A stretch of DNA of 64,000 nucleotides from Yuukianura sp. NJ FZ-2021 (GCA_046563655.1 CM102289.1:124001-188000); one strand, 5' to 3'. Positions 13,867 to 61,441 are shown, counted from the stretch's first letter. The notes: generated by a model from the letters alone, not told the origin. Translations and numbers: made by a program.

Positions 13867-15169
13867 CTATTTGTCGGCAGCTACGATTTCCATTTTGGTT
13901 TGACTGTATCTATTTCCAAGGAGGTTCAACATAAAATATGCGTAGACTTGGCCATCAAACGTTTGGAGGGCAATTGCTATAAAGTTTGAAACTGACTCAA
14001 GGTCAAACGTTTTTGTTAAAATTTTGGACGTAAAGCGCATGTCTCGCGTGCAGTTGTTCAGCAGTTGAGAAACTTGTTCAAATGAGTCATTCAAGCTGAG
14101 TCCATGCTTCTGCACTCCCCTCAGAACTGCGTTGTTCATGTCACAGTTTCTCAAATCTTTCTCAAGTCCAAAAATGTCATTTAGAAGCCCAGTGGCTAAG
14201 TTATAGCTGTTGATGAATATTTTAAAAACCAAACTTTGTCTGACATGAGAAGGCAAAGCGACGTTGCTAAGCGCAGTTGCCGCTTCCACAAAAAGCTGGC
14301 CTCCAGCATCAGCTTCTCGGATCTTCCTCATTGCTTCTTCAGAAAAAGTTTCTGTGCCTGTGCAAGTACTCGAGAATACTTGTCCAGTACTTCCAGTACT
14401 TTCAAATACTTGCCCAGTACTTCCAGCATTTCGTGATGCTTGAGTGAGGTGGATGGCCTCCACTCCCTTGAAAACTGAGCGTTCAAATGGAATAATATTT
14501 TGACGGAAGTTGGGGACCGACTTTTCAAATTTCTGAAACGCCGCGATGTAGAATGCAATGGAAAGAGCGCCAACCGGAAACGCCCTTCCAACTTCCTCCC
14601 ACACTTCAAATTCTCCCGCCAAAATCCTCTCCCACACAAAGTACTTTTTGTATAGAGATTTCAACTCTAGTGAAATTCCTGCTTCTGCGCATGTCTCGTC
14701 CAACGCATCGTCAATCTGAAATGATCCTGCACAGATACTTGCCACTCCTTCAAAAATGTCCGAGTGAACATCAAAGTTCGGAAACACCGTGACAGACAGA
14801 ATGAGCCACCCAAGAAACTTGTTCCGAAGTTGCTCCTCGTCCAGTTCTTCGTGCAAACAGCGATGTTTCCGCACAAAAGCCTCCAGAATCTTCTCCTGCT
14901 CTTCATAATCCAGTGAATAGTAATTGGAACACGGGTATTGTCTTAAAAAAGTACAAAAATAAAAATCAAATTTCAAAATTTCATGAAAAGTGAAAAAATT
15001 ACCCAAATCGAGTAAAAAGTGGAACTTCGCAAATGAGTTTGTCGGCGGTTCCATACAGAGGGTGGTTTATGTTCTCAAAAGTAATGCGGACTTTGACCTT
15101 TGACCCGAAAGGAACTTCATTTGAGGTGGAGCAGGCGAATCGGATTGCTTCCTTTCCCGGAGAATTCAT
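13867..15169 (-). CDS. Microbial-type class I terpene synthase (terpene cyclase fold); 2 exons, intron 14942-15002
   Basis: IDDALDE (DDxxD), READAG (pyrophosphate-sensor Arg region), NDIFGLEKD (NSE/DTE-like) followed by MNNAV, and C-terminal RY; upstream exon MNSPGKEA...PLFTRFG joins in phase through a 61-nt GT-AG intron. Confidence 0.85.
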
Positions 15170-15678
15170 TTTTGGAAATGGCGGGCAGATTGAAATTTTT
15201 GAAATTTATGTTTTGGGTTTTATTGGAAACCTTGAGCATCTAATCACTTCCTGGGCTTTCCCTGACCTAAGGTCACTTAAAAAACAGAAATTCATTTTAA
15301 GAAACATTACAAATTTTAAAAGTGTGTAAATGTTTTAAAAGCTTTTCCCACAAAAAGATGGAAGATGATTTTTTTTGCGTGACGCTAAAGTGAGTAGATG
15401 GTGGTGATAAAGATGTGCCAAGGTGGTCAGCATCTTAACTTTTTCTTTGTGTTGGTTCACTACAACAAAGTGTTAAACATCAAATTGCTTCTCAATGTAT
15501 TTTCTTGTGGTAATTCAAGGACATCGTGATTCACTTGAGTAGATTTAAGTGCAGAATGAAAAACCGGCCTTCGGGAATTCTGAGAGAATGGATGCAGTTT
15601 TTCCAATAGCCAATTCCAATTTAGTTGTCAACTGGTGTAGAACGTGTAGTGTGGAAGTAATTCCAAACGGAACTTGTC

Positions 15679-16966
15679 ATGGCGCATTTCATGATTGGAA
15701 CACAAGTGATTTTTGTAATTTTTTTGGTGAGTGGCCTTCATGCTGAGGACTCGTACACTGCTGCAGAACTCAAGGCCATTCAAGCGGTAAGCGCTTTCAA
15801 ATTCCAACTGGAGTGCAAGTCACGATTTAATTTTGATTAGTACAAATGTATACGTAACTAAAAATTAATTTAGATTCGGCATTTGGTGAAAGATGGATTG
15901 ACCAAAAGCTACATGAAGGAGAACAAATATCTCGTTAGGTGGCTCAGAGGTGAGGAATTTGCTTTACGTTTATCGAAATGCATGCAGCATAGGCAATTAC
16001 ATTAACGCTTTACCACATAAAGTCAACTACAAAGTAACACTCTTGATTTCTTGTGCAGCTCGTGACCTTGACATTAAAAGTGCCGAAGATATGCTGAGGA
16101 GAGTAAGTTTTGAAAAGTATTTTTATAATATATTTTAATAACTTTGTAATAATAAAATACTTAGAACTTTGAGTGGAGGAAAGAAAACAAGATGGACGAG
16201 ATTGAATACGAGGATTGGAGGCAGTACGAGGCTCAGTATCCGTTCAGTTTCCACATGAAATCATACGATGGACGCCCTGGTACGCTCCTTAACACAGATT
16301 TAAACTTGTACTGTATTAAATTTGTATTTAAATTCCCAGTGCTCTCGTCGAGACTGGGTGCAATCAACATTCGACGAATAATTCTCAACGGCCAGCGACT
16401 AAAAATCCGTCGCTACTTGCTGTATGGCCTGGAGAGGGCAGTGCTAAATGTACATAAAGTTTCTAATGAAACTGGCAAGGAGTTCGTGGGATCACACTTG
16501 CTGTTCAACATGGCAGGATACGACCTAAGGACGCACTCATGCTTCCAGTGTAAGGAATATTACGCAGATTTTGTATAATACGCATGCGTATTATACTGTA
16601 ATTCCATTTTCATGACCACCCTTTTTAATTTTTTACAGGTATTGCCGGTTGGATTATTTTTGTGCAAAATTATGAAAATAATTACCCACAACTAGCACAA
16701 ACTATGATTGTAGTCAACAGTATGTAACACACAACTTTGACACCTAAAATTCCAACCTATGTTTTCAAAATTTGTCTCTAATTTGTTTTCCAGCACCTAG
16801 AATCTTTGAAACATTGTTCAGCGTGTTGAAGCCATTGCTGTCTGAGCAGTCGCAAAGGATTATTCGCGTGTACGGTGTGGACAAGGCAGAATGGAAACCA
16901 GAACTCCTTAAACTTTATCCCGAGAATATCTTGACGCCTGAGTTTGGAGGCACGTACAAGGTGTAA
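15679..16966 (+). CDS. SEC14-like CRAL-TRIO lipid-binding protein with N-terminal signal peptide; multi-exon
   Basis: YLVRWLRARDLDIKSAEDMLR, YDGRP, YENNYPQLAQTMIVVN/APRIFETLF, LTPEFGG; N-terminus MAHFMIGTQVIFVIFLVSGLHA-ED. Confidence 0.88.
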
Positions 16967-17999
16967 TGAAGCAACTATTTTGATTAGAAGTCGATTCACC
17001 ACAATCAATGTAATCGTAGCATCGAATTGCACCAAATTAATAAACTGCCGAGCAAACTGTAGTAAAAACGATTATATTTTAAACCGTACGAATTGCATCA
17101 AAGGAATGTTGGCGTATCAGTTTCTTAATTATCAGCAGAATCCGTCGTATTCCTAGGATTAGTAAAACGAGTACAAATATTGGAACTGGAACACACACGA
17201 GCTGCATCATTTGTACTCACCAGGTCAATTCAAATGCTATTGGTAATTTCAGAACTTTCCAGTAGTTGCAATGTGTGATAAGAATGCAAAAGTTTGTTAT
17301 GGTTTATTATTGTGTGGCTGTTAAGCCTTGTAACCGCATGTATTGTAGCAATTTATAAAAAAAATATTCCGTAACTGCTTTAGCAGTAACACCATGGTTA
17401 CAACAAATCAGGCTATAGTCTTTTTCCTCGACTGTGTCAAGAATCAGCCAAATCTGTCGTATTCCGAGGATTAGTCAAAACAAACAAAAATGTTGTGGTT
17501 GGTAATACTTCGACTCGCATCTTTTGTAACCACGTACTGCATTGAATTGACTAAATTACACTAACTAGTTGTTTTATTTAAGACTCAGTAGTTTTTATAA
17601 ATATGTTAATAAAGTTGATAAAATTAAGTTTTGCGGTGCTATAATTACCTGACAGTGGAAAATTACGATGTCTTTCTTTTTACATGGTATATAGTGATTA
17701 TAGTGTCGTTTGTGGATACAACAAGCCAAGCTGTGAGTGATGTCAACCAATATTTACGCATTTTTTCAAAGGAAAAAAGTTTATTTAATTTGTGTTATAA
17801 CTCCAGACGAAACGCAGTAACAATTTTGGAATTAAGTTGGTTAGATCGTTAACAGTTAGGTATTTAACTAATTAGTCATCAGTTGGTTGCCCACCAGACA
17901 ATAGCCCGCCCAAACGGATAAGGTAACAATTCAACACATCAACTACCACTCAATATTTCAAATTGTTGAATTCGTCTTTGCTTTTGCAGGAGTTAATTG

Positions 18000-19506
18000 A
18001 TGAGGTCAATTGGTTTCATGATGACCTCCAGCATATTGTTCCCTGATCCTTGGACTCTGGACGAAATAAAGCCGGAGTTGCACGTCTTCCGAAGAGGGAG
18101 AGTGGATGGCCTAGTCATTCCCCACTCGATTCAACCATCGGGTGCTGCCACAGTTCTTGCTCAAAATGGAATGCTCTCTACATCCAGACTCGTGTTTGTG
18201 GTCCATGGATTCAGAAATACTGTCCAAATTCCTTGGATGCAGGACATGAAGGATGCTCTCCTCAACGAATCCGACCAAACCGTCATTCTCCTTAACTGGG
18301 GAAATGGTAACGTTTTGACCTTTTCCATCAACTTCATCGTAAGAATGTTTTAGTTTGGTTGTAATGTAAAACAACTTTCAATTGTGGACTTACTATTGTA
18401 GGTGCGGATCTGATGGCTGCGAGATACTTGCAAGCTGCTGCCAATATCCAGCCTGTTGGAGCATGGCTGGCAGCACATGTTTCTCAACTTGGGATCGTCC
18501 AAGGACGGACTTTGTGGGGAATTGGACACAGTTTGGGATGTCATCTGCTGGGAATTGCTGGACGGCAGAGTGGGAGACTGGACAGAATCTCGGCCATGGA
18601 CCCTGCAGGACCAGCTTTTGAGAAACACTCCTTTGTCCCTCTGCGACTCTGTCCCACTGATGCTGTATTTGTCGATGTCATACACACGGATGGATATGAC
18701 TCATTTCTGGATCCAGAGGACTGGGTAAAGCCTATTTTACTTCAACCAAGGGATCCAAATTGTTCGTACTGCACTTTTCTGGAATCCAAAAAGGAATCCA
18801 GAATGCTGCAGAAGGAGAATAATCGTCCATGATTCCTTTTTCCCACCAACAATTCAAATTCCTCTCAATTTGTGTTCACTTTCCTACTTTCAAATAGAGT
18901 CACCCCATTATAAGTTAGAATTAATTGATTACTTGTTGTAGCATAGCCTTAAGTTGATACAAAGCTAACAGCTCATGCAGTAAATCCGGGTTAGTTGACA
19001 CGTTAGATGAATTAGTTGCTAACTAATAATTTTTGTTGTAGATTTCTCCTGTGAATCACTATGGCACACTCATCCCTCTGGGTACAATTGATTTCTACCC
19101 GAATTTCGGGTATGACCAACCTGGTGCTGGTCCAGTGTCATCTCACCTCATTGCGGCCAGTCACTTGAGGGCCATTGACCTCTTCCTGTGGAGCATCGCT
19201 AATCCACTCAAATTCAGAACCAAGGAAGGGCTGGATGGAGTTCCAGCGTTCGAGGCGCCAGTCAAGAAACTGAAGGCGGTGGACACAGAGTCTGAAATGG
19301 GGTACCATGCCTATGCTGCTCCAGCCACAGCAGGAATCTACTACATCCAGACAACCAAGGCTGAGCCATGGGTCAAGAACTGGAAAGAACCACCAGAAAT
19401 GAGCCCCACTTCGGCGGGTCAAGGGTCACCGCAAGATATTAACCCGCCATCCGATGGACAAGGGAAGGTCAATGACTCTGACTCTTGGAACTGCACCATT
19501 TGTTGA
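18000..19506 (+). CDS. Pancreatic-lipase family lipase; 3 coding exons ~18000-18306, 18402-18724, 19042-19506
   Basis: FVVHGF, GHSLG (nucleophile Ser), MDPAGP (Asp), FVDVIHTDG, GTIDFYPNFG, SHLRA (His). Confidence 0.9.
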
Positions 19507-20544
19507 ACACAGTCCACCCTAACTACGAGCCAAATCCTAAGCCTACAAAACAATTCGTCCCACCATGTAACATTTTTTAAATTTTTACTGACAACAATAT
19601 TCAGGTGACCTTTGACCCACAAACCCTTCAGAGGTTGACGTTAGTAACCTTACATGTGATTATCTTTGAGTCCACACAAAAATAATTTTAAAATTAATTT
19701 ATTCCTAAGCCTTACCAGTTCAAAAGTCTTCATCTGCTTAATTCAGAGGTTTACTGACCCCCGCTTTCGTTGACGTTCTAATCCATTGTTTTGTGGGAAT
19801 TGTGAAAGCCGCAGATTCGCATCTGCGTCGCATTTTAAACTCAAATCCTCAATTAGTTTTTAATTTAGTCCGAGATTACAAATAGGAGATTAAAATTGTG
19901 TTGCGAATGCAAAAACTGGATTTTGTTGTAACATCATCATGCCACTCTTTGACCTCTGAACTACATTAGTCTTGAACTTACTTTCAAATCGAGACCTCTG
20001 AACTTTGAAATTTGACCTTTCCAAATATTTTGGAATTTGAGCTCAAGGCATTGACATTCTGATGAGATGAGCTCAGACAGGAACCTGCAAAGGGAAAGTT
20101 TTTTTGTTTTCGGTGACGCAAAGCCTACGTGATGTTTAATGCATTGCACAGAAGCATCGTCTGTCTGCAAACAAAATGGAAAATGGTAAATTTCATAACT
20201 TAACGTCACTTTGCAGTAGGAATTTTGGGGGTTTCCTCTTGTGAACTTCTCCATCCTGAATGTTTGAAAAGAAAAAGGAGATACTCAAAGTGCGAAGGTA
20301 AGGAAATATTGTTTTGTTTTTGAAAGAGTAACCTCATTTTGGTTTGAAGGAGGATGTGGATTTCCTTGGGAGTTGGAGGGAGTAACTACTTTTACTTTTA
20401 GGATTGTGGGGATTCACGATGACTCAAACTGACCCACTGAAACTCAACAAACAAAAACCACCCTCTCCACTTCACCCCCTGTGCACAGGGTGAGAAATGA
20501 CTTCAATTTTGAAAAGTGCAGAGTGGAAGTGGACACAGATCAAG

Positions 20545-22580
20545 ATGGAAGTGAAATCGGTTTTGCTTTTAGTTGTTTTCGTGTGCAGTGTGGCCTCTAC
20601 CTGCTTTGAAGATGAAAACCAGCCGGGGTCAAAGTTCAGGTCACAAGTTACACAAGATTTTCAACAAGTTCTCTACCAAAACCAACTCAATTTCTCACTC
20701 ACCCTCTTTCACAATCTACACAAAAAGTAAATTTCATAACAACATTTTCACTTTTATTTAAAAGAATTATTTTTAGAAATTACGAGTCTGCTAAGCATGC
20801 TTCCTGAGGCCTCGCCTACACCCGTTAAATCCTCCTAATTTTTCCACTTTTTTTTCCAAAAGTAATAAGCTAGAAAGGTAGAACGTGTGATGAACTTTTT
20901 CAAAAAACTACATTTTGGAAAATTTCAATGTCTCATAAATGAGGAAAATGCGTTTTAGAGAGTTATAGCCGAAAACCGTGACTAAAATCTAAAAAATTTG
21001 GGGGTAAAAAAATGATTTAGTAAAATGCAATTCCGGAAGTACATCTCACCTGTGAGTTTTCATTAGTATATAATAGATTTTTATAATATTTTTTTTATTG
21101 TTTTTTTTCAGCATGAGAGGAGGAACTTGTTCTTCTCTCCGCAGAGTATCCACAAGGCCTTGATGCTGGCGTTGTTTGGATCCGCCGGAGAAACAGAAAT
21201 GCAGCTAAGGAAAGCACTGCAACTGGACCCCACCATGTCAAAGACTGACCTCATCCGACAGTACAAAATGGAAAAGTATTTCATGGTAACAAAATTTACA
21301 CTTTTACAACTTTTCTCAAAATTTCTGCAAAAACTTTCAAAATGAGGGCATGAGTCTCTAACTTTGACTTTGATTTTAATTTCAGGAAGCGAGAGCTCTG
21401 AACACTTCAAGCTACGACCTGAGAATCTCGAACAAAGTATTTTTCTCTGACCAGGAGCCACTGCGCAGTTGCATTCTGGAAATCCTGGAAGGAGAAATTG
21501 AGCAAATGAATTTTGAAAATGACACGGAAAGTTCTCGACAGGAAATCAACTCCTGGGTGTCAAAAAACACAAACGGAAAAATCCAAAACATCATTCCCCC
21601 TGGGGTCATCAACTCTCAAACCAGAATTGCAATTGTAAGTTAAAACCATTAAACCAATTAAAAGTAAGGCAGTTGACATTTTTTTTATTAAGTAGCAAAA
21701 GCTACTTTATGGCTTGTTCTAGTCTGTCTGTCCGTGAGGACTCAAGTTTTTTTAATTTTATCGGTCTGTCTGCCGGTGCCATCTTTCGCTACTTTCGAAC
21801 ATCGTTTTTTCTTTAATTTTAGGTGAACAGTGCCTACTTCAAAGGGACTTGGGAAAAACAGTTTGACGTTGACAAGACAAAGCCCAGTTTGTTCTACGTT
21901 TCTCCAAAAGAAGTCAAACGGACAGAAATGATGTTTCACCGAGACGCCTATCGTCACGGAGTGTCAGAAAGTCTAAGATCCTACATTCTGGAACTGCCGT
22001 ACGCCGGAGAAGAAATTTCAATGTTCATTCTTCTGCCACCATTCGAACCAAATGCACTCGAACTCACTTTGAGTCGACTCACTGCTCAGAGTCTCCAGGA
22101 AGCAATTGACCCCAACCAACTCTACTACGACACAATAGACATCGCAATCCCAAAGTTCAAAATAGAACAGTCTTTTGAACTCAACAAGGTCAGTAGGAAA
22201 CTAACTTTCAAGTTTTGAATTTTTACAACTGACTTTTTAATTTTAATTTTGAATTTTGCGCATTTTGATTTTAGGCTTTAGAGACAATCGGAGTGGTTGA
22301 TTTGTTCGACGTGGAAAAAGCAGATTTGAGTGGATTTTCAAATAAGTCTGGCCTTGTGATTGGAACTGCCAAACACAGATCTTTTGTGGAAATCAACGAA
22401 GAGGGGTCTGAGGGTGGGGCAGCGACGCTTTTGATTGACACGCGCAGTGGTCGCCCGCTGGACCAAATGCACTTCATCTGCAACCATCCTTTCCTCTTTC
22501 TCATCCACGACAATGTCGCCAAAACTGTCCTCTTCATGGGGGCATTCACTAACCCCAAGGGCACCAAGAGGTCAACATAA
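20545..22580 (+). CDS. Secreted serpin (serine protease inhibitor), multi-exon
   Basis: Signal peptide MEVKSVLLLVVFVCSVAS; NLFFSPQSI, NSAYFKGTW, IPKFKIE, reactive loop EEGSEGGAATLLIDTR-SGR, FICNHPFLFLIHD. Confidence 0.92.
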
Positions 22581-22866
22581 CGATATACTACGCTATTTTT
22601 ATTAAACGCTTTTCAACTTTTGAAAATTAGGAAATTTATGGGTTAGGCTGTCCTCACTTCATTTTTAGTGCCAAGTGATTTCAATTGCAAACTTGGTCAG
22701 TGAATAGAAGAGGTTCGAAATCAGGCTAAATTTGACAACTCAATGAAAAAAAAATCTGGGTTAGGTTTCCCACATTTTACTTCCCAGTGCTTCAGTTTTG
22801 AAATTTTTTTCAATTTGAAAAGGTTGAACTTTCCGTTTAAAATTTTTTGGATCCTTTGTAGCTACA

Positions 22867-23661
22867 ATGCTTTTTGTTGGGATTAGAAACATTGTGTTTT
22901 GTTTCACTTTAATTTTTGTGGTTGTACTGAAACTGGGATCAAGTGATCTTCGTGACCTTTTAGATTCCACGAAAGGAGTTTTGCCCTGGAACTTTGAGCC
23001 TTCGGGGCAAGAGTGCAGTCATGTGAGAAAAGGGGGTCCAATGTGCATATTGTTCCCGGAGTCAGATCCGGGGCCCTTCTACCTGCCCCTGCACTTGGTG
23101 AGACAAGATGTGCGAGAGGGGGAGCAGGGGGTGCCGTTGACGTTGACCCTCAAGGTCATCCACATCACAACTTGTTCTCCAGTGGGGAAAGTAGCTGTTG
23201 ACTTGTGGCAGTCCAATGCATTTGGCCTCTACTCTGCCTTTCCTGGCAGAAATGTTGTGGAACAAGCAGTAGTAGCAGCCGGGAGTGGCCCTGCACGCCC
23301 CTCCTCTGGCAACACAACTACTTTTCTCCGTGGCGTCCAGTACACTGATCAAAAGGGACTTGTTAAGTTCGTGACTATTTTCCCTGGATCGTACGCTGTA
23401 CGGTGTGTCCATGTCCACTTGAATGTCCACTTCAACAACCAGATACACTATGTTGACTTGTACTTTGAGGATAGGTTGAGGAAGAGAGTGGACAAAGTGT
23501 ACCCTTACAATGTCAACTTGAGTCCAAGGCTTAACAACAAAGACGACAAATTCTACGCCAGGGACAACGGAACCATCAGCACAGTTCCACTCACGGGAAA
23601 CGTCCAACAGGGATTCAAAGGAACGATCACCATGGCTTTTGGACCAAAAACCAAGTTGTGA
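22867..23661 (+). CDS. Intradiol ring-cleavage dioxygenase, secreted type, intronless
   Basis: CILFPESDPGPFY, EQGVPLTLTL, VDLWQSNAFGLYS, FLRGVQYTDQKG, TIFPGSYAVRCVHVH with Tyr/Tyr/His/His iron ligands; hydrophobic N-terminus. Confidence 0.92.
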   Translation: MLFVGIRNIVFCFTLIFVVVLKLGSSDLRDLLDSTKGVLPWNFEPSGQECSHVRKGGPMCILFPESDPGPFYLPLHLVRQDVREGEQGVPLTLTLKVIHITTCSPVGKVAVDLWQSNAFGLYSAFPGRNVVEQAVVAAGSGPARPSSGNTTTFLRGVQYTDQKGLVKFVTIFPGSYAVRCVHVHLNVHFNNQIHYVDLYFEDRLRKRVDKVYPYNVNLSPRLNNKDDKFYARDNGTISTVPLTGNVQQGFKGTITMAFGPKTKL

Positions 23662-24336
23662 ACACATTCAATTTTTCCAAGGTTGCTACAGCAACCAATT
23701 CCATTTCCTACAACAGGTTCTTCAATAACTCCGACTTTTATAAAAAATTGAGTCAAAACAACTGTTTGAACCGATTCCCGTTAAACACAAGTTACCATTG
23801 AATGGCACGGCGAAACCAGATTTGAAAATTATTGAGCAAAATTAAAAACTCGGAGTTATTGAGTAACATGTTCTAGAAAAAACAATCCGCCTGTCTACCA
23901 ACTTTGAATTATTCTAAGAATTAATTATGAATCTGAGGGACCTTATTAAAATGTCTAAAAATACTACATATTTTTGTGAATTCAGGAGGAAAAGATTAAG
24001 TCATCGATCTGGAAATTGAAATTTCAGATATTTTGAAACACCTAACTCGAGAACGGATAGCGATAGAAAAATAGAAATAATAATATCTTCACGACAAACC
24101 TTCAAAAACTATGAACAATTTTGGAAATTTTGAAAAGTCCACGAGTGAACATTAAGTTTTAGTGTACAGAAATTAGTAAATTCGTTTCAAACTCCAAAAA
24201 GGTAAATGCTTAAAGTTAAAATTTATTGGACAAAATAAGAACACTAACTAAATCTTAAAAACTGAGAAACTGTAATCCTAGTGACTTTTAAATAGGAGTT
24301 TAGTCTTGTTCTCTTCTTCAACTAAAGTAAATATTT

Positions 24337-27300
24337 TCAGTTACAAATGAACAGTTCCACTTTCTCTTGACACTTTTGACACTCCACTTCACAACACCAG
24401 CGGAACTTGCAAGCACATTTCCAGTTGCGCTGTACTTGGTGAATGCTGTGCCCTCTGCCACAACAGAGCATGTCACAGGACTCCTCACTTCTGCGCAGAC
24501 TCACATTCTGCAAAGAACGGCCTTCCATGAGGCAGTGGCGACCTCTCGTGCCAAGCGAACCAAGGCGACTGTTGGCTTCGCAGTAGTTGGGCGACGGTTC
24601 CAAGTACACTAACTCAGTTCTGCGTGGTTTGGACTGCGCATGAGCAGATTCCTTCAGAGAACGCTTCCTTTCTTTGGCAACTTTGCTCGCACGATGTCTC
24701 AAGTGGGATAGTTTCTTCACGGCGGACTTTGGGTGCGGACGGATGAGCAAAATAAGAGAGCGACGTGACCTCTGACCCTCAAATTTCACAAATTCAATTT
24801 TTCAAAATTATAGTTTTTGAAAATTTTTATTTTTTGAAATGTTGTGTAAACTGTTTACCTGTTGAGGTCCTCCTGAGACGGCCAAGACAGGTTTAGCCTC
24901 TTGGTACTTTTTGACTAATTTGTCTCCGATTTGTCTAAAAGTGGGTAATTTGAGCCAACATGTTTTGAGTGTACAGGAACCACTCACCCCATGACACTTG
25001 CACTCCGTTTCTAATGTAGACTGGACCATCTGAAACGTAAAAAAGTAAAATTTACGTCTCATGCAATCGTAAATTGTAAATTTTGACCTTTCTGCCTGCT
25101 TTGTTGTTGTGTAGATTCATGAGTGATCGTGCATCTTTCTCCATCTCCCTTGAATCCAGAAACTTCCTGGCGAAACGGAGGCCAAACTGGACGTTGGCTG
25201 AGCAGCCTCCCCACCGCCACGACGCTCCTCCGTTGGCTCCGCCCACTTCTGCGTTACTTTGTGACGCAGTCAGAGATGCAGCAGAGGGAGTTGTCGTAGC
25301 TGGACCACAACCACAAGAACTAATTTCACCCCGTCCACATGCCTACGCATTCAAAATTCATTTCATTTCACCAAATTTACTTTCCCTACTTCCATACATT
25401 CCTAAATTTCCCATGTCAACTTTTCTCTTCTGCAAACTTACCTCCGTTAGTTCCTAAACTTACGTAAATTGACTTCCGTCAGGATGAAATTTACTGCTAA
25501 AAGTTCCATAAGTTATGTAAATTTGCCTCGTAAGTGTGTAAATTTACCTGAGTGATGGCATACGTGACAGCTGAACTGGTGATGGCGTACAAGTAGGCAG
25601 CTTCACGACTTCCTGCACACAAAAAGTGGAACAATAAGAACAGAACTAAAAGAAGTTTTTTGGTTGTGCGCATGCGCTGAGAAAATAAAAGGAGAATATA
25701 GGCGTGAGATTTCCTTTTCTTTGAATTTGTTTGAGAAATGGAGAGAACCCTCTAATTTGTCGGCAACATTCCCAGTTCAAAAGAAACCAAAAGATGCTCC
25801 CCTGCTGCTTACGACAAAGGAACAAAACCTGCGGTAAAAACCAAAGGTGTAACAAAAACTCCAAATCTTCAAAGAAAAACTGAAAAAATGGTGGCTAATT
25901 TTGAAAATTAAAATAGTTTCCTTACGCCGTCTTAAAAATTTAAGAAAGTCTGAAATCTCGCAACACTTCTAATCTAAACTCTTTCTCTTTTTTCTCTTTC
26001 TCTCTTTTCTTTAGACAATTGAGTGGAGGGTGTGGCTGTTGACAAGTTGACGTCTAATCTAAATTGTTCCGTTGTCACATCATTCTACAAGAACATCTCA
26101 AAAGTGTCGTAATGAGCCGCAACACGCTCAGAATTCAAATCAACTGATCTCCTTTGATCAACTCAACTAAAAAACTACAAAGAAATTTTAAAAAGTTAAA
26201 AAAAATCAAATTGGACACGAGAAACTCATTTGGAGATTCGGAGATGAAATGAATGAAGAAAAACAAAGTTCAAAGTGAGGGAGTGACCCCGAAGTGTCAA
26301 CTTTCAATCAAAGGTCAATCTCACAAAAACACAAAATTCTACTTTGTCTTTTAAAAAAACTGTTTAACTTTTTTCTTTGAGAGTTCCCTGAGAATGCGGT
26401 CTTACAATTAACTTCCGTTGACTTGATTTCGTTTTGTTCACACCTACTTGCAAAAAGTTAAGTGGATTTTGACACCTACACTTGCCACTTTTGTGCTTTT
26501 TGCGAACGGAGATGAGTGGCTAATTACTTTTGTTAGTGATTCAACTTTTCATCATAATTTGTTGTGTGAATCATAATAATTCAAATCTTCCCACGAGATA
26601 ATTGGAAGTCCATTGTGCATTGTGTGGGAGTTTGTTTGTTATTGTTTAAAGGCATGACAGGGAATGCGTTGGTGGTAAATTTTAAATTTCAACTCATGAC
26701 TTTCCTGCTGCGTCGTACTTAATAACTAACCAATAATTTCAACTTTTCCTTCGTAATTAACCGTAAACTGGGCACAAATCGTGGGCGGCAGGATAAATGA
26801 TAGATCGATTGAAACAGAATCGCAATATCTAAGCAAAAAATCACAATGATACTGCGCAAAAAAGTCGTGACTCGACAGACTTCAACTTTAAACATTCGGA
26901 AAAACTTTAAAGTTCACATAAACTTAAAGTCTTTTTTTACTTGTGAAAACTAAACTTCAGTTTTAATTTTTTCTCTGCATTTTCTTACCGATGAGAAAAA
27001 GGTGTGGGAAAGATAGTTCGTGCCCAAATGCAGGCGTGCAATTCCAGCGACTGAATTTGAATTGATGTTGACACTCTGCAATTCCGAGCTGCGTTCCCAC
27101 CCCCACCACTGGAATTACATCTGGGAATGTCTGGAAAGAAGAGAAGTGTCAAGCATTTTGTCATAATGTTGGTCCACATCAACAGTAAACAGAAACAGAA
27201 AACAACAGAAACAGTAAACAACAGAAAGTGTTAAGATAGTGCATTGTTCCTACCTGACAAATGGCTCTTTGTCTCTGCGTCAGAGAAGGAATGTGGCTGC

Positions 27301-29791: not shown

Positions 29792-30167
29792 TGTTAAATA
29801 GCTAAACTATTCAACGGGAAGTTGAATCTCCTAACCGGGGAATCTTCCTTCCTAATAATTCGTCGAACCACGCTAAGAATCAACGTCATCCAAACAATAC
29901 TTCCGATTCCAAATTTACACTTTTAATTGCCAAATTATGAAAATTACTTCCAATTAAAGTCAAATTAAGAATTGAAAACTTATGACTTGAAACCCACGAA
30001 CTTCTTCTCCTGTCAAAATCTTATCCTTCAATACTCTAAAAAAACTTACTTATTCCTAACGGACAAACCCACAATCCGCCAAAGGCCAAACGCCACCCAA
30101 CTCAACACACAAATCTAAAATTAGTCTTAAATACAACCCCCCCAAAATAACGCTTAACAATTTAACA
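29792..30167 (-). repeat. 3' LTR of the BEL/Pao element
   Basis: Direct repeat of 35865-36240. Confidence 0.95.
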
Positions 30168-30259
30168 TATTCCCACTATTTTTTGACACTCAAAAAATAC
30201 GTAATAGTTAAGCTTAGAATTAAATTAAGTTAATGAATTAAAATCAATTAGTCAAATTT

Positions 30260-36506: not shown

Positions 36507-38402
36507 CTACTCGCATGCTACTCTTGCGACGTTTTCTAGTAGATCTGCTGCTCTTTTGATGTTATTAGCTGCTTTGATGCGTGTTGAAATGGTTTTCATG
36601 CGTTTTTCCAGCATGTCGTCTGCCAAGAGTGTTTCAATTCCTTGCAGAAGTTCCTGTTCTGTGACCTGGTAGGGATCAAAGTGCAGTCCAAGTCCCATTT
36701 CTGTCACTCGCTGGCCATTGTCAGCTTGGTCGCAAAACAGCGGCAACACCAACACTTTCTTTCCGAAATGAAATGATTCTGTGATTGTGTTGTTGCCACC
36801 GTGAGTTATGACGAGGTCAACCAATGGAAGGAGGTTCGTCTGCGGCAGACTGTTGGCCCCCCACATGTTGTCACCAAGCTCCAACTGGTCGCCAAGTGGA
36901 CCTAAACAAAAGTTACACATAGTTACCATCAAGTTACGATGGTTACATGTCATGGTTACTTAATTGTAACGATGTAGCTGTAGTTACCTTTGGAAATGAT
37001 GAATCTGTGTGGAGATTTGGAGCAAATGGAGATGAGTTTGTTCATGAGCTGGAGTTCGGAGCAGCCGATGGATCCGAGCGACACGTACACCAATTTCCCC
37101 GCCAGATTTTGGAGTTTGGCGGGAATTTCAAAATGTTTTGGATCCGAGCGGACAAGAGCATCAAATTGATGGAAGTTGGGAGGGTAAGGACGGTGGATGT
37201 GATAGTCCAACTCCTGGGGGTACATGTAGAGGTTGGCATAGGGGGAGTCCCTTGTCCAGATCGCTCTGTCGTCATATCTCAACTCACTCCCGCCCTTCTC
37301 CAGGATCCAGGACCGGAACTCTTCAAAGATCGGTTCCAGAACTTGCCGCTGTTTCTTCCGGTACTCGTCCCACAGAGTGTAGTCAGGATCCAGGGAAGAG
37401 TAGCCGCTGAATGCTGGAGCAACATTGTCCACCGCCAGGCCAATTGGGTTGATAGACGTCAAACACACCCAGGGGTAACCTGCAATTTATAAGTACTTTA
37501 ATTACACTAATTACTTTGTCATTACCAAGTAATTACTCACAATTTGTATCCAGTTCATTCGAAATAAAATATTATGTGTATTTGACTTGTAGTTCTAAAA
37601 TATATGATTTCTTGTAGTAATTACTTTGTAATTACCTAGTAATTACTTGGTATTTGGAAAAAGTTCAGATGAAATGAAATATCTATCGCCAATGGACAAC
37701 TTGTAATTCCCAAATGTGTGGCACTCATAGCACTTACATTGTAATTACTAAGCAATTACATCTTAATTACTTTGTAATTACCAAGTAATTATTTGGTATG
37801 TGGAAAATGTTCAGTCGATATTAAAAATCTATCATAGACGGATATCTTGTTATCCGTAAATGCGTAATTACTAATTACTAATCACTCATATAATAGGAGC
37901 AACATAATTACCATGTAATTACTCATAGGCGTTAGTAATTGCCAAGTAATTACCCGGTAGTTCATGTGATACAAAAGAGTGCGACTACTGAAATGGATTG
38001 TTTACCGGAGTCTGAGAGTGCTGGGTTGTAGATAGCGTCGACCATGATTAAATCCGGTTGTATTTCTTCCACAATTTGGCGTAGTTTGGCGTCTGAGTCT
38101 TTGGCGTTTTGAATGAGTTGGCGATAGATGTTGGAGTTGAAGTGTTCTAGTTTGGCGAGAGGGGGCATTGCGAGTGCTGGACTCATTGTTTTCACCATTT
38201 CCCCCCACTTCTCCAGAGATGGCTCCTCCTTCTGCTCATCCTGGAAACATCTCTCACTGAAGCCCAGGGGGGTCAGTTTGCCCACCCAACTCTGCGACAC
38301 TCCGAATGTGACCGAGTGACCTCTCTCCACTAACTCCTGACCCACTCCAATCATCGCATTCACATGACCAACAGCATCAATTGGAACAAACAAAAACTTC
38401 AT
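36507..38402 (-). CDS. Soluble GT1 UDP-glycosyltransferase of bacterial (macrolide GT-like) type; 3 exons
   Basis: MKFLFVPIDAVGHVNA (catalytic His, no signal peptide), LVYVSLGS, LPQTNLL..DLVITHGGNNTITES..LPLFCDQ; ends AADLLENVARVACE* with no transmembrane tail. Confidence 0.9.
37490..37960. repeat. Degenerate TAATTAC-rich repeat region in UGT intron 1
   Basis: Many copies of (G)TAATTAC and larger duplicated blocks (attactttgtaattaccaagtaatta). Confidence 0.6.
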
Positions 38403-47736: not shown

Positions 47737-48484
47737 AGTTCTTTCTGATTTGTGGTTTAAAAACTTCAATTTTTAAGTTCAAAATAAGTTTTCACTTTTT
47801 GTGGTCCTGTAAAGGATGAAAGACGGAGTGTATTTCTCAAGACTTGCCTTACTGTATCCTAAAGTTTTGTAAAATGGACGGAAATGGACGGATTTGAAAT
47901 ATTTCGGACAGCTATGATAATGGTTTGTAAAATGGGCGGGAGTAGACGGAAATGGACGGATTTGAAAGTTTTTCGGACAGTTCAGACTGTCCGTCCTCTC
48001 CCACTTTCACCCTCACTTCAACTGATTCACGAATTTTGTTTGCCCTCAAACGGGCGGTTTTCGGAGAAAGTTTGAGTTGACGACAAAAGTTGTTTACATT
48101 TCCACAGCGGTAAGTCATGCAACTGCGCACCAAATCCCTTCCTGACCACAATCCTCTCAAAATTTCAAAAATTTCAAAATTTTTGAACTTCAAAGGAAAT
48201 TGAAAATTTAGTTTAGTTAACTACCTAACCCGAACTCATATTTGAGTAAAGGAAGGAGAAAGCGTTGAAGTTGATTTGAAATTACTGGCGCCATCTCGCG
48301 GTTAGCCAAAACTCTTTGCATTATTGAAGAGTCGTGTAAGAATTCTGAGAAAAAAAGAAAGTTCGGAGAAAGTAAAAAAAAAAATCAATAGTCACTTCTA
48401 GAGTAGCCTCCGTGGAGGGACATACTAAACAGCACACTATAAAAGTGTAAATCAACTTTCAAAATCATTTCCAAATTGTTAAAA

Positions 48485-54587: not shown

Positions 54588-56716
54588 ATGATGGGAAGGA
54601 ATCGATTTCTATCTTCAGACAGCGTGACCTTGGAGGAAGCAATTACAGCCTACGAGAAACTGAAGAAAGGCAGGGACTTTCCCAAGTTTCTGCGCATTGT
54701 GTCTGAAAATGAGAGTCAGGAGGAGTCGCCTAGCAACTCCATCAAATCAACAAGTGAAACCGAACTCACTGACCCCAAATTCTCCAGTGGACTATTGAAG
54801 CACATCAACTTGTTTCAGCACTTCGATCACTCCAAGGTACTTTGAATCCAAAGTTTGTTTTTAACAGGTTATACCATAACTATTTTTTCTTTTACATTTT
54901 AGTACTCTTACTATTCTGCGGAGAGAGACCTCTTACAAGCTGCGACTCTGCCAGATCTAGCTCCGAACTACTCTTCCCTCCTCACTGCCTCCAACTTCTG
55001 GTTGAACATCACGAATCCAGATGAGGCAGACATCATCTTCCTCAGACAGACGTTCGATGTCAATGAAATCGTTTTATCTGAGATTCAAGAGGGAAATGCA
55101 GAAGAGAAAGTGGAGACTTTTCGCCAACACACCTTCATCTCATTCAGACTCCTCGGACAACAACAGGAACTCGGAAGTCAGGCCGCCGGAAGGGATTCGG
55201 GCAAGTCACTTTTACAATTCTCACTTTTAGCATTTTTGGTCTCATGTCATACTTAAAAACATTCTCATACGACATTGTCCGTCTGTCTGTCCTTCCGTCG
55301 CGTTTTAAAAATAAATGTCGTGGTTTCAGAAATAAGACGGACAGACGAACAATGTTGTGTCAATAGTCTTCTGGGAACGTATTTCTATCCTATCCTTAGG
55401 AAGAATAATAATGCAACTTTGTACGTCTGCCTGTCTGTCTGTGTGTTTTAAAATTACAACGAAGGTAAATTTTAAAAATGTTTTTTTTTTGTTTTTCATT
55501 AGACATGGCCTTCAACATGATCATGTTCAAAGACTTTATCATCACGACGCACAAGAATTCGTGGGACAGCATCCCCAACATCCTCTCATTCATTTCCATG
55601 ATTTGTAAAAGTGGCAAAGAAGAACTGAAGCCAGAATGGGTTTTGTTTTCAATTCTGGTAGAATTGAGTCAAGATGCCAAATTCTTACTGGATGTGATGG
55701 AACCGGAAATCGACAACATTCGGATCGGTAGTAAAAGTTTGGCCGAAATGTCGAATGTGATGCGACGGAACTTTGACATGGAATTTCAAATTTACAAAAT
55801 CAATGCCTTCATTACCCCCAAAGTTGACGTTCTCAGGCAGCTCCTCAACTCGTCAACACACTCTAGCCGCATCTCTGAAAAAATGCAAAAGCATCTGAGA
55901 GACGCACAAGAAGAATTCGTTGGACTGCTGGATCACCTGAAGAATTTTACGCATATTGTAGAGAGAAGTCAGGATACGATTCTGGCTCTGGCCAATGTGG
56001 AGCATGCGCGACTCGCAAATGGACTCGCAATTGCCATGAACAGAATTGGAGAAATAGCTCTCGTCTTCCTTCCTGTTCAAGGTTTGTTTTTAGTTTTTGG
56101 CATTCGTCGTTTCAAACTCTCGCTACTTTCTTAACAACGTTTTTAGTTTTTGGCATTTGTTGTTTCAAACTGTCGCTACTTTCTTAACAACGTTGTTAGT
56201 TTTTGGCATTTGCTGCCATTTTTGTTGTTAAGAAAGTAGCGAAAGTTAGGAAAATCTTTGGCTACTACAAAACCTCTGTTTTTTTTCAAGAATGATCTTA
56301 AGTATCTAAGAACTTTTTTTTTAAAGTTTTGTATAATTCGTCTTGTTTAAATTGCAGCTCTAGCTGGATTTTTCGGGATGAATGTGAAAGTGCCTTTCCA
56401 GAGCTACGAGTCGACGACTGCCTTTTGGTGCATCGCTTTGATTTCTTTTTTGATTGCGGTTGCAGTTTACGCTAGAAGCAGAAGTTTATCAGTTAAATCA
56501 GAAGTGACTCCACTTCCGGTGAAACTCAGAGGAGATCTTCTGCATGAAAACGAATCAGAAAAGGCGGGAGACTTCACAGACGCACATCACACTCTGCTCG
56601 GCAAAACCAAGAAAAGAAATGCCTTTACAAAGCTCAAGTGCAATCCAGTTTACACGAGAGTTGCTTCGATGTGTAGCAAAAATAACACGCAGTCGCACTC
56701 CGACCATCATGTCTGA
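54588..56716 (+). CDS. CorA-family Mg2+ channel, fungal ALR1/MNR2-like; exons ~54588-54836, 54903-55200, 55503-56080, 56358-56716
   Basis: FWLNITNP, EEKVETFRQHTFISFR, long helical stalk, then LVFLPVQALAGFFGMNVKVPF (GMN signature) and a second TM FWCIALISFLIAVAVY. Confidence 0.85.
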
Positions 56717-59450: not shown

Positions 59451-61267
59451 TGCAAACATTTAAAAAAGTAAACAGACACGAAATTAAACATGATTCGAGA
59501 CAGCAAAATTGCAACTCACACTAAAACAAAATTACTGACATGAAAACCTAAGTTTTTAAAGTAGTTTTTAAAAGTAACTTGAACTTTCACTTGTTAAATT
59601 GAGTGTGAAATTGGTTGATTGAAGATGTTTTAGTTTTAAACTGACCCTGCTTAGAAGTTGTGGTTTGTTGGTTGGTGCACAAGTGTGTTTCCCTCCAACA
59701 CCCATGTTGACTTTCGAGGTCAAAGGTCAATTCCACTCGATCTAAAGTGATTTAGGCAGTTACAGTCCAGTACTTTGGCTACTCCTCCAACAACTGACCC
59801 ACTGAGGCTGTAAAAAGTAGAAGTGAGGTTGAAGATGTGTGTAATCAGTGGAACGATCTCCAATTGATGAGCAATTGTTGGCGTAACAAACAAAAAATCA
59901 AAAGTTCCCACCAAAGTACAATTGCTTCTCCTTTGTTTCTTATGCTTTGACCTCAGTCAGCGGAAACACTCCGCCTCTACAGATTTCAAAACACAAACTG
60001 AATCAAAGTTAGGCAACAACACTCCTTTATAAACATCTTCAACTGTGTAAAACACCCAAAACACTCAATTTAAAACACCCAAAACACCCAGTTCTAACTC
60101 AATTGTTGTAAACCAAATGTAAGACACCATCAACTGCAAACCTTTTCCTAGGTTAACATTCTTCTTAGCCTTATTTTCAATTAGTTACTCCCTCGAATGG
60201 ATGTTAAAATTTTGAATTGCCAGTGGAATTTAACAACAATTTTACTAGGAATTAGTTTTCCCCAAGGTATGAGAAACGTTGGGCCTTAAATCCAGTGTTA
60301 AATTTCAAGTATATTTTAACAAGTTTTTGTGAATTTGACATTCAATTAGAACTAATTCACAATAAAATCATTGAAAATTTAAACTTTTTTTAAGAAAATG
60401 AGAAAATTGGAGTTAAGAGGGAAACCATTTTTGGATTTTAGAGTGTAAAGTTTGATTAGAGTTGGAATTAGTTTCCCAGCGTGTCTTTTGTGTTTAATTT
60501 TGCAGAGAAACAATGGAATACGGAACTTGATTGTGCAATGGACTTTGTTAGCTTTGCGGAAGGAAAAGTTGAAAAGTGAATCTGAAGTGTAAATAGTGGA
60601 CATTTAAATTTGGATTTGGCGGGAGCAAAGTCAAAGTGTTAAGGAGGGAAAGTGGAATCTGTGTGTCGCATAGCGTCAGTTTCCCAGTCGTCACTTGAGA
60701 TTGTGATCTCTGATTCTTTGTCACTCCACAATTGACTGTGGGAATTTAAATGTTATACAAACAGTACAATACGTTCCATCAACTCACCCTGGGAAAATAC
60801 ATGTTATATAAATAAGTTAATGTGTTTCATTAATGCGTGAGAGCGGAAGGAAGTAACGACAACTGTAGCCACAAAGTTTCTCCGTCGCATTGTTCCACAA
60901 AATTTAGTCACAAAAAAGTTAAGCCATTCCTGAGATACGCGTTGACGAAAAGACAGACAAACAAAACCAAACTATAAAGTAGTTTTCGCTGCTTATTAAA
61001 AGTGATAGACTGGGGCGTAGGTAAGTAGCGAAAGAGGAACTGTTTTTTTTATTCTCTCATTTTTCGTAGTACAAAATTAGAGTTGAGATTGTATATAAAT
61101 GGTATTGAATGTAGAAGTGCAGCAGCGTCCGCTCTCCATCCAACTTTCTCTCCACAATCCACAACTTTCACCATCAATTTCCTAAATTTAAAATAAAAGT
61201 ATTTGGTAAAGGAGTGTTCCTTGACTTGATTTGTTAATTACATAATTAGTTAAGTTTACCTTAGTTT

Positions 61268-61441
61268 TTAGTATTTGAGAATGATGTAGACAGCATGGAT
61301 GATGCCTGGGATGTAGCCAAGGAGTGTAAGGCAAATGTTAATCAGAAGGTCACAGCCACACCCCTTCTCCAGCAACACCCCGATGGGGGGCAGGAAGATT
61401 GCCAACAACAGTTTGCAAATGTCACTGCACGTAAACGCCAT
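61268..61441 (-). CDS. Pmp3/UPF0057 plasma-membrane proteolipid, 57 aa, intronless (not in the ORF track)
   Basis: MAFTCSDICKLLLAIFLPPIGVLLEKGCGCDLLINICLTLLGYIPGIIHAVYIILKY*; LPPxGV and LTLLGYIPGIIHA are the family signature. Confidence 0.92.
   Translation of the reverse strand: MAFTCSDICKLLLAIFLPPIGVLLEKGCGCDLLINICLTLLGYIPGIIHAVYIILKY

Follow-up and report, generated by a model that had tools for sequence, protein, structure and literature searches.

How microbial-type genes come to stand close together on an animal chromosome, and whether such neighbours were acquired or work together, is the question raised by a segment of the Yuukianura sp. NJ FZ-2021 genome. Within the window, meaning the whole 64,000-nt stretch analysed (CM102289.1:124001-188000), positions 13,867-61,441 had been proposed from the sequence alone to hold five horizontally acquired genes at different stages of intron gain, interleaved with animal genes and possibly forming a biochemical toolkit. 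Dispersed among the animal genes we find three to five that are bacterial or fungal in type and were domesticated long ago, a picture that fits known springtail biology. In our preferred reading, to which we assign a probability of roughly 0.7, at least three foreign genes and probably a fourth, CorA, are separate old acquisitions that were domesticated singly, and neither a co-transferred block nor a pathway cluster is involved.

Gene layout of the segment

The window is one continuous sequence and contains no N, and the chromosome piece is springtail-like, given the springtail-specific gene families that it carries. Scanning its 173 stop-to-stop ORFs of at least 80 aa against Pfam, limited to the 150 longest and supplemented by a separate scan for Pmp3, recovered all five microbial-type genes at the places claimed for them: a terpene synthase, an intradiol dioxygenase, a soluble UGT, a CorA transporter and Pmp3. 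Their gene models reproduced the reported intron numbers (1, 0, 2, 3 and 0, in that order). The genes are intact, carry their catalytic or defining motifs and their splicing signals, and are physically linked to the following animal genes.

13867..14941, minus strand: terpene synthase exon 2, PF19086; spliced product 413 aa
15003..15169, minus strand: terpene synthase exon 1, 55 codons plus 2 bases; ATG at 15169, GTAATT donor at 15002
17997-19503, plus strand: lipase (Pfam), a native neighbour
21067-22577, plus strand: serpin (Pfam), ending 290 bp before the dioxygenase ATG
22867..23661, plus strand: intradiol ring-cleavage dioxygenase, PF00775; intronless, 264 aa
24340-25751, minus strand: Wnt7-like gene, its last exon about 680 bp past the dioxygenase stop
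29792-36164, minus strand: Pao/BEL LTR retrotransposon between Wnt and UGT; context, outside the gene set
36507..36901, minus strand: UGT exon 3; 427 aa after splicing, hydrophobic tail absent
36988..37479, minus strand: UGT exon 2; sole matches UGT203A2 (87.3 bits) and UGT202A2 (57.1 bits)
38006..38402, minus strand: UGT exon 1; best solved relative UGT203A2 (53.4 bits); TIGR01426 MGT
39621-47772: cadherin repeats (Pfam)
49827-52146: NOL9 (Pfam)
54588..54836, plus strand: CorA exon 1, colinear with the relative P0049 from the first Met
54903..55200, plus strand: CorA exon 2; 3' boundary the least certain, 55176 or 55245 scoring nearly equally
55503..56081, plus strand: CorA exon 3, 73% identical to P0049
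56358..56716, plus strand: CorA exon 4, carrying GMN and the second of the membrane helices; 494 aa after splicing
57057-58643: low-complexity cuticle-like ORF
61268..61441, minus strand: Pmp3/UPF0057 proteolipid, PF01679; 57 aa, single exon

The interleaving described in the sequence-only reading is borne out, with the lipase, serpin, Wnt7-like, cadherin, NOL9 and cuticle genes, and also an arrestin-like gene (Pfam), lying between the five. The dioxygenase is bracketed by native genes within 17997..25751 (lipase, serpin and Wnt7-like), and the top solved relative of the Wnt gene is Wnt-7a (94.9 bits, against 80.1 for Wnt-5a). Unmentioned until now was the Pao/BEL element, which lies about 350 bp off the 3' end of the UGT gene. 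Its polyprotein frame is open over 1758 aa and includes Peptidase_A17, RVT_1, integrase and DUF1759; its LTRs of 300 nt are 100% identical, and the element is young.

Three genes with well-supported foreign ancestry

The claim of horizontal acquisition stood for the terpene synthase, UGT and dioxygenase families, is weaker for CorA, where it is probable, and had to be given up for Pmp3, which is uncallable. The literature reads the first three families in arthropods as horizontally acquired (PMC11665903, PMC13638087, PMC9113151, PMC9167512).

The foreign ancestry of the terpene synthase is well supported. Its Terpene_syn_C_2 match at 13870-15066(-) reaches E 8.6e-10 (39.1 bits, Pfam cut-off 23.7), and its two exons are separated by a 61-nt GT..AG intron. 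Terpene synthases are recognised by metal-binding and terminal motifs named DDxxD, NSE/DTE and the C-terminal RY pair; here these are intact as DDALD, NDIFGLEKD and RY and are conserved across the alignment, D76, D77, D80, N253, D254, G257, K260, D261, R343 and Y344 showing little or no variation among 13 sequences. The protein may thus act as a class I terpene cyclase. It probably belongs to a springtail family already in print, with which it shares a single alpha-domain, the DDxxD, NSE-type and RY motifs, a position among animal genes with nearest relatives on animal-type contigs, and the presence of an intron, as in 152 of 277 published springtail genes (55%; PMC11665903, PMC13638087). The two papers describe springtail terpene synthases as a separate clade, and our findings agree with this. 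A 22-aa tandem insertion of STGQVF units, missing in all 12 aligned relatives, sets the Yuukianura enzyme apart.

Relatives of this gene are scarce: 41 of 1.84 billion representative proteins matched at E<=1e-3, and among 185,579 prokaryote species scanned for the motif, 38 pattern matches included no relative. Five related loci were found in metagenomes. Flanks were checked for two of them, and both have split animal-type genes as neighbours (SLC4 exons at L081, BTB and EamA at L084). Four of the five share the first exon and the intron: a counterpart of the exon-1 peptide precedes the homologue at L081 (51% identity, E 1e-16), L083 (E 2.6e-10), L082 (E 1e-3) and L085 (E 3e-3) and is absent from L084. 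At L081-L083, the three loci displayed, the donor comes after an identical 'GG'. Since the intron is common to distant relatives on animal-type contigs, it appears to be old, and with it the acquisition. An intron and an added first exon common to terpene synthases that are only 31-54% identical provide an example of old domestication.

For the UGT, a foreign ancestry of the bacterial MGT type is well supported. Its three exons are separated by introns of 526 and 86 nt, both in phase 1, and UDPGT (E 1.4e-12), EryCIII-like and Glyco_tran_28_C matches fall at 36510-36959(-). All three exons score highest on UGT203A2/202A2 and then on bacterial OleD/YjiC; we take UGT202A2 (6pnt) and UGT203A2 (7lvy) to be enzymes of the spider mite Tetranychus urticae, and the bacterial-type UGTs of Acariformes to be the UGT201-205 series. 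Exon 3 gives 98.9 bits with UGT203A2, 96.7 with UGT202A2, 54.6 with a YjiC-type enzyme, 48 with OleD and 39.1 with human UGT2B17. Against the TIGR01426 MGT model (NCBIfam) it scores 76.6 and exon 1 33.7 bits, values for single exons that stay below the whole-protein cut-off of 260. The protein, like the Acariformes enzymes, is a soluble GT-B of about 430 aa, MGT-like and with the N-terminal GH and the C-terminal nucleotide-sugar signature (THGGNNT...DQ) kept. It ends in ...NVARVACE, its maximum 19-aa hydropathy (1.46) falls at the N-terminal strand, and it is without the C-terminal membrane anchor of animal ER UGTs. What distinguishes it from the Acariformes genes is its springtail host and its pair of introns. 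Its relation to the mite clade may reflect a shared acquisition, a transfer between arthropods or donors of one group. It would be a cytosolic small-molecule glycosyltransferase. In PMC9113151, acariform, rotifer, Folsomia and bacterial UGTs group apart from the remaining arthropod UGTs.

The intronless dioxygenase, whose foreign ancestry is also well supported, matches Dioxygenase_C marginally at 22828-23658(+) (29.0 bits, Pfam cut-off 27.3). The best solved structure is that of spider-mite Tetur07g02040 (6bdj; E 1.6e-26, 96.4 phmmer bits). Intradiol dioxygenases bind Fe(III) through two Tyr and two His; Y122, Y176, R179, H182 and H184 are invariant in our alignment, where the Tyr and His residues fall on the Y/Y/H/H of 6bdj. 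The N-terminus is hydrophobic (hydropathy peak 2.46 at residue 2) and probably forms a signal peptide, and the protein could therefore be a secreted Fe(III) catechol-cleaving enzyme. Small, intronless and with an export-type leader, it resembles the spider-mite DOGs, and it shares with them and with their microbial counterparts the iron ligands and the Arg.

In score, however, it differs from them. Prokaryotes provide 504 relatives at 28-40% identity (best 135.5 phmmer bits), of which the 19 best-scoring reach 114.7-135.5 bits against 96.4 for 6bdj. Membership of the tetranychoid DOG lineage was considered and set aside, microbial scores exceeding the mite score among the prokaryotes compared; as soil Actinomycetota enzymes (120-135 bits) lie closer than the mite enzyme, the springtail gene is probably not of mite lineage. 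Its donor may have been fungal or bacterial. In a bacteria-only tree its branch is 1.33 long and joins no supported clade, and in the Atlas ranking fungal clusters come first at 0.92, with a bacterial cluster scoring 0.87. No close relative turned up in the protein collection, where two of 518 candidates matched, at 37-38% identity. PMC9167512 places animal DOGs in Tetranychoidea only, mentions springtails or Folsomia nowhere and reads the spider-mite dioxygenase itself as a transfer; we found no report of an intradiol dioxygenase in springtails in the literature searched. What is new here is that a springtail-like genome carries an intradiol dioxygenase in intact form, an enzyme class whose animal occurrence the searched literature limits to spider mites and their kin. 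It looks separately acquired, and soil arthropods may have gained catechol-cleaving enzymes more than once.

CorA and Pmp3

The CorA gene was modelled on the full-length relative P0049 and has four exons with introns of 66, 302 and 276 nt; the Pfam match covers three ORFs at 54903-56713(+). The GMN motif, as FFGMNV, spans the exon 3/4 junction, and hydropathy peaks at residues 367 and 394-398 correspond to two C-terminal membrane helices. Like prokaryotic CorA (Thermotoga maritima, 4eeb/2bbj) and fungal Alr1/Mnr2, the protein carries PF01544, a long cytosolic N-terminal domain and a GMN that ends the first of the two helices. Unlike them, it has 494 aa, three introns and, at the N-terminus, about 120 additional aa that its four close relatives conserve as well. 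It is proposed to be a pentameric Mg2+/Co2+ channel.

A profile built from four CorA relatives matched Thermotoga-type CorA in the PDB (E 2.5e-10), and its 14 hits at E<=1 comprise CorA, CmaX, ZntB and one unrelated PsbY chain, with no MRS2 chain named and no fungal sequence among them. The PDB set searched presumably contains MRS2 structures, as PMC13022745 supports, and an identity with animal or mitochondrial MRS2 was rejected on this result. By its sequence the gene is prokaryote-type and not MRS2, which makes a foreign origin probable. Most non-vertebrate animals are described in PMC13022745 as being without MRS2.

Pmp3 matches PF01679 over model positions 1-49 of 49 (E 1.7e-24, 86 bits, cut-off 22.9) and would be a small membrane proteolipid. 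We found no difference from the Pmp3/RCI2/YqaE proteolipids, a family common to bacteria, fungi, plants and some animals and therefore uninformative on transfer. According to PMC12136403, 'some simple animals' have PMP3 proteins, and C. elegans carries 15 copies. Because nematodes carry many copies, the gene cannot be called microbial; with its 57 aa it is too short to carry a claim of transfer, and it may simply be an inherited eukaryotic gene.

Probable separate acquisitions and local density

The nearest non-animal relatives of these genes differ in kind, which argues against one transfer event. Together with the differing intron loads and the host composition, this points to separate old acquisitions. 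All five genes are host-like in composition, with GC of 0.43-0.51 and GC3 of 0.45-0.67 against 0.37-0.53 and 0.37-0.66 in native genes, and three of the five have GT..AG spliceosomal introns. That they stand at different stages of intron gain is possible; the single datable intron, that of the terpene synthase, is old. We picture the segment as one contiguous piece of an animal chromosome, in which foreign genes would sit singly among native ones, each presumably with its own promoter and strand. Current views are not overturned by these findings. Springtails already count among the animals with the most foreign genes, and for them two of these five families have been published.

The segment offers a concrete site for asking whether springtail foreign genes pile up locally. 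Folsomia candida has a published load of 809 foreign genes in 221.7 Mb. Under a uniform model that borrows this load, at least three such genes fall within 47.6 kb with P 7.7e-4 and at least four with P 3.3e-5, values to be read with the fact that this window was chosen because it is conspicuous. Local enrichment is thus likely to be real in some measure, and scatter by chance alone may be too simple a picture. An insertion-tolerant, transposon-active region that accumulates foreign genes would make the density real and non-functional. The low P for three genes, the intact Pao/BEL element close to the UGT and the correlation between transposon and HGT abundance in F. candida (Spearman 0.637; PMC5490193) speak for such a region. 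However, a young retrotransposon cannot have brought in foreign genes whose amelioration and shared intron mark them as old; chance alone would produce about 3.6 windows with at least three such genes across 221.7 Mb, and developmental genes (Wnt, cadherin) occupy the same stretch. We regard this explanation as possible, if somewhat unlikely.

More speculative, and unlikely, is that the stretch is a real accretion hotspot, on a chromosome where terpene synthases and soluble UGTs are paired again and again, and that springtails, independently of spider mites, recruited the same kinds of foreign enzyme for small-molecule chemistry, namely a bacterial-type UGT and a secreted intradiol dioxygenase, here next to a terpene synthase. 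If true, the dioxygenase would be the first known hexapod catechol ring-cleaving enzyme, and the proximity of terpene synthase and UGT a selected feature.

Vertical inheritance and a shared pathway as unlikely readings

Some or all of the five could instead be ancient eukaryotic genes that springtails retained while most animals lost them. The distribution of PMP3 and the one eukaryotic Atlas cluster near CorA fit this, and PMC13638087, in which the origin of springtail terpene synthases is unsettled, keeps open a single acquisition in a common arthropod ancestor followed by losses. The best-conserved UGT exon nevertheless prefers the bacterial MGT-type enzyme over human UGT2B, and the other two match bacterial and UGT20x enzymes only. 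The dioxygenase, with its many prokaryotic relatives, has as its only animal match among solved structures an enzyme itself read as transferred, and CorA is without an MRS2 match. Inheritance of this kind is improbable for the set.

Separate acquisition also fits the arrangement of the genes better than the make/oxidise/glycosylate/transport toolkit suggested earlier, in which a terpene synthase scaffold would be oxidised, glycosylated by the UGT and moved by a porter under shared regulation. The terpene synthase and a small-molecule UGT do lie 22 kb apart, and springtails make unusual terpenoids, as stated in PMC13638087. Yet lipase, serpin, dioxygenase, Wnt and retrotransposon lie between these two, and the genes as a whole stand on both strands, split further by cadherin and NOL9. 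The sugar porter is GLUT-like, an ordinary animal family, and the GMC oxidoreductase likewise falls in an ordinary family, by its Pfam match, that we take to be common in arthropods. Intradiol dioxygenases act on catechols, not terpenes, and the Pfam scan of window ORFs returned no P450 or other terpene-tailoring enzyme. We see no evidence of a shared pathway and give a working metabolic cluster very little credence.

Microbial contamination or a chimeric assembly, which the two intronless genes (dioxygenase and Pmp3) and the lack of close dioxygenase relatives might suggest, is very unlikely for a continuous, N-free sequence with animal genes less than 1 kb away on both sides, host-like composition and spliceosomal introns in three of the five genes.

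Gene order and integration into the animal genome

The window is eukaryotic and contains no N. Of its 173 stop-to-stop ORFs of at least 80 aa, the 150 longest were scanned against Pfam, and small ORFs were scanned separately later; these scans bore out the gene list and coordinates of the sequence-only reading, which had placed five genes of microbial type among animal genes.

Genes in order along the window (Pfam assignments, the cuticle-like gene apart)
about 1.6-4.2 kb, minus strand: GMC oxidoreductase
4.9-6.8 kb, minus strand: sugar transporter, top match human GLUT3
between sugar transporter and terpene synthase: zf-BED ORF and weak F-box-like ORF
13.9-15.2 kb, minus strand: terpene synthase
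between terpene synthase and serpin, plus strand: pancreatic-type lipase
directly before the dioxygenase, plus strand: serpin
22.9-23.7 kb, plus strand: intradiol dioxygenase
after the dioxygenase, minus strand: Wnt
29.8-36.2 kb: Pao/BEL LTR retrotransposon
36.5-38.4 kb, minus strand: UGT
39.6-47.8 kb, minus strand: large cadherin
between cadherin and NOL9, plus strand: arrestin-like gene
between arrestin-like gene and CorA, minus strand: NOL9
54.6-56.7 kb, plus strand: CorA
between CorA and Pmp3, minus strand: low-complexity cuticle-like gene
61.27-61.44 kb, minus strand: Pmp3 (small-ORF scan)

The Wnt exon matches Wnt-7a best (94.9 bits vs 80.1 for Wnt-5a). The ORFs with the BED zinc finger (9500-10347, plus strand, E 2e-4) are possibly what remains of a hAT-type transposase, or else a BED gene that was domesticated. 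Open frames that have no Pfam family and span 100-150 aa, at 59046-59459 (minus) and 62603-63270, 12268-13097 and 16165-16575 (all plus), may be lineage-specific genes; the ORF at 62.7-63.1 kb starts with the signal-peptide-like MNKQILLIAILFATVAFVASA and has a tail rich in Tyr, Pro and Cys.

Gene models of all five confirmed the intron counts of 1, 0, 2, 3 and 0 along the window.

Gene models of the five microbial-type genes
Terpene synthase exon 1, minus strand: ATG at 15169, end at 15003, donor GTAATT next
Terpene synthase exon 2, minus strand: 14941 to stop at 13867, after a 61-nt intron; product 413 aa
Intradiol dioxygenase: single ORF, 264 aa, no intron
UGT exon 1, minus strand: 38402-38006
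UGT exon 2, minus strand: 37479-36988
UGT exon 3, minus strand: 36901-36507; spliced product 427 aa
CorA: four exons, 494 aa, fitted to the full-length relative P0049; exon 2 end the least certain boundary
Pmp3: single ORF, 57 aa, no intron

The five genes are part of the animal genome. Contamination is ruled out because three of them contain introns of the spliceosomal type, 290 bp lie between the serpin and the start of the dioxygenase, whose end is about 680 bp short of the last Wnt exon, and composition lies in the native range (GC 0.43-0.51 and GC3 0.45-0.67, against 0.37-0.53 and 0.37-0.66 in native exons).

The intradiol dioxygenase

Foreign genes of this kind are well known from springtails; the new element is the dioxygenase, the one component here that seems not to have been reported before. 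Its two Tyr, two His and one Arg stand at invariant columns and align to the same residues in 6bdj, the solved spider-mite enzyme Tetur07g02040. The protein is probably secreted, because it begins with a strongly hydrophobic stretch. Among solved proteins the mite enzyme is the top relative (E 1.6e-26, 96.4 bits), followed by a family at 31.5 bits. Across 5.8 billion proteins, a word-based search with 518 candidates yielded just two matches, both 37-38% identical and bacterial in look, one with a twin-arginine-type leader; a close relative is therefore absent from that collection. A scan of prokaryote genomes found 504 relatives, the best 80 of which are 28-40% identical and come mostly from soil Actinomycetota (Gaiellaceae, Streptomyces, Acidimicrobiia). 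On the same phmmer scale, the best 19 prokaryotic relatives listed reach 114.7-135.5 bits, clearly more than the mite enzyme.

A bacteria-only tree of 82 rows, comprising the window gene, the proteins P0002 and P0003 and 79 of the 80 loci (one was dropped by an ORF filter), places the window dioxygenase on a long branch (1.33) outside every supported clade. A feature-based Atlas search, which yields family-level leads only, ranked fungal clusters first (0.92) and a bacterial cluster at 0.87. The donor may have belonged to either the Actinomycetota or the fungi.

A joint transfer from a mite of terpene synthase, dioxygenase and UGT can be rejected, because Actinomycetota sequences score higher against the dioxygenase than the mite enzyme does, Tetranychus is reported to be without terpene synthase in the part of PMC11665903 available, and the accessible text of PMC9167512 places animal intradiol ring-cleavage dioxygenases (DOGs) in Tetranychoidea only. 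We conclude that this is a foreign-type secreted intradiol dioxygenase whose acquisition was probably separate from that of the spider-mite family. The words 'springtail' and 'Folsomia' do not occur in the accessible text of PMC9167512, and a search of literature that mostly lies outside subscription journals found no paper linking intradiol dioxygenases to springtails.

Terpene synthase and soluble UGT

In an alignment of 13 sequences, DDALD, NDIFGLEKD and the C-terminal RY of the terpene synthase all fall on conserved columns. A metagenome scan found five relatives, 31-54% identical (L081-L085), and in four of them the exon-1 peptide lies directly upstream of the homologue: L081 (51% identity, E 1e-16), L083 (E 2.6e-10), L082 (E 1e-3) and L085 (E 3e-3); a search upstream of the homologue in L084 did not find it. 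In L081, L082 and L083, the three loci listed, the same GG stands before a GT donor. Since relatives carry both this peptide and the same donor, the two-exon model is settled, and the alternative start at an in-frame Met within a retained intron is excluded by the exon-1 peptide in the relatives. The added first exon holds a conserved (V/I)DHP(L/I)YGK motif (L081, 3998-4138; L083, 457-588; L082, 763-903), and prokaryote-style gene calling skips it on these metagenomic contigs, which leaves P0001 and P0004-P0007, as stored, truncated at the N-terminus. Private to the window protein is a tandem-repeat insertion of 22 aa that none of the 12 aligned relatives shares; this in-frame tandem duplication (STGQVFE/STGQVFS, 14300-14380 in exon 2) falls where the relatives vary in length too.

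Relatives of this protein are few: among 1.84 billion representative proteins, 41 reach E<=1e-3 and six E<=1e-30, and the word-based homologue search returned one match among 3038 candidates. None of 38 pattern matches across 185,579 prokaryote species, one genome each, was a relative, which is weak evidence of absence from prokaryotes as the scan hinged on one exact motif. On two long contigs split animal-type genes adjoin the homologue, namely four SLC4/Band-3 exons (L081) and a BTB gene with a split EamA gene (L084), and the nearest relatives therefore lie in animal DNA too; the taxonomy of the terpene synthase, CorA and dioxygenase matches (20 proteins looked up) is read from flanking genes alone. 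The intron is common to the window gene and its nearest relatives. According to the parts available of two studies, canonical terpene synthases occur in two of three springtails as their own clade (PMC11665903), and 277 such genes, 55% of them with introns, occur in 21 of 26 springtail genomes as a distinct clade of unresolved origin (PMC13638087). The window gene is an ordinary member of this published family.

Both introns of the UGT are phase 1 (526 and 86 nt). The protein carries an N-terminal GH and, in its C-terminal part, the THGG...DQ signature, and it lacks a hydrophobic tail. Each exon taken singly finds UGT203A2 as its top solved match (53.4, 87.3 and 98.9 bits) and UGT202A2 as its second, both of which we take to be Tetranychus urticae proteins. 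Bacterial OleD/YjiC-type enzymes come next, and human UGT2B is matched by the conserved C-terminal exon only, at no more than 39 bits. The NCBIfam subfamily is macrolide glycosyltransferase (MGT), and the UGT family is already known. Intron 1 contains a 102-nt repeat (37618-37865) in two copies, 146 nt apart and 79% alike.

CorA and Pmp3

The CorA protein has the FFGMNV motif and two C-terminal hydrophobic helices. A word-based search restricted to longer proteins gave four matches among 1078 candidates, all full-length relatives (P0049-P0052), 50-73% identical on the large exon and encoded on contigs 1.9-2.6 kb long. All four relatives run colinear with the spliced product over all three junctions, which makes these contigs either transcripts or genes free of introns. 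A profile built from these four sequences matches Thermotoga-type CorA (E 2.5e-10), and none of its 14 matches to solved chains at E<=1 is named MRS2; vertebrates and sponges aside, MRS2 is missing from most lineages of animals, according to the part of PMC13022745 available. A foreign origin is probable on these comparisons. Comparison of P0049-P0052 with 54588-54960 of the window also showed conservation of an N-terminal stretch, some 30 residues long (S..LEEVITVYEKLKRGR-like), that the CorA Pfam domain does not include.

Pmp3 covers 49 of 49 model positions (86 bits). Its family is described, in the accessible part of PMC12136403, as widespread among bacteria, plants and fungi as well as present in some simple animals, with 15 members in C. 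elegans; at 57 aa the protein cannot carry a transfer argument. Nothing relevant linking CorA or Pmp3 to springtails was found in the literature covered, again mostly outside subscription journals.

Pathway, local density and the retrotransposon

Horizontal acquisition, proposed for all five genes, is supported for the terpene synthase, UGT and dioxygenase, probable for CorA and no more than possible for Pmp3. Nothing favours the suggested make/oxidise/glycosylate/transport toolkit: its putative members lie on both strands with unrelated native genes in between, the sugar porter resembles GLUT proteins, and the Pfam family that the GMC enzyme matches is an ordinary one, common in arthropods. 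Intradiol dioxygenases act on catechols, and the Pfam scan of the longest ORFs found no P450 or other terpene-tailoring enzyme in the 64-kb window.

We modelled local density as uniform and took as background the load published for F. candida (809 foreign genes in 221.7 Mb, 2.8% of genes, in the part of PMC5490193 available), which gives 0.17 foreign genes expected per 47.6 kb.

Foreign genes in 47.6 kb under the uniform model
three or more: P 7.7e-4, about 3.6 windows expected in 221.7 Mb
four or more: P 3.3e-5, about 0.15 windows expected in 221.7 Mb
five: P 1.1e-6, 0.01 windows expected in 221.7 Mb

These P values apply to a window picked for standing out, and the model ignores clumping of foreign genes with transposons, for which the accessible text of PMC5490193 gives a Spearman coefficient of 0.637 in F. 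candida. With three to four real cases set against them, they suggest some local enrichment, for a pre-selected window and an F. candida background; the region-level and pathway readings are unproven.

Some 350 bp separate the UGT from a Pao/BEL element whose LTRs are identical. This element cannot have brought in the foreign genes, because it is far younger than they are. Located at 29792-36164, it has 300-nt LTRs that are 100% identical and one open polyprotein of 1758 aa (DUF1759, Peptidase_A17, RVT_1, integrase and DUF5641); the copy is probably very recent and possibly still active.
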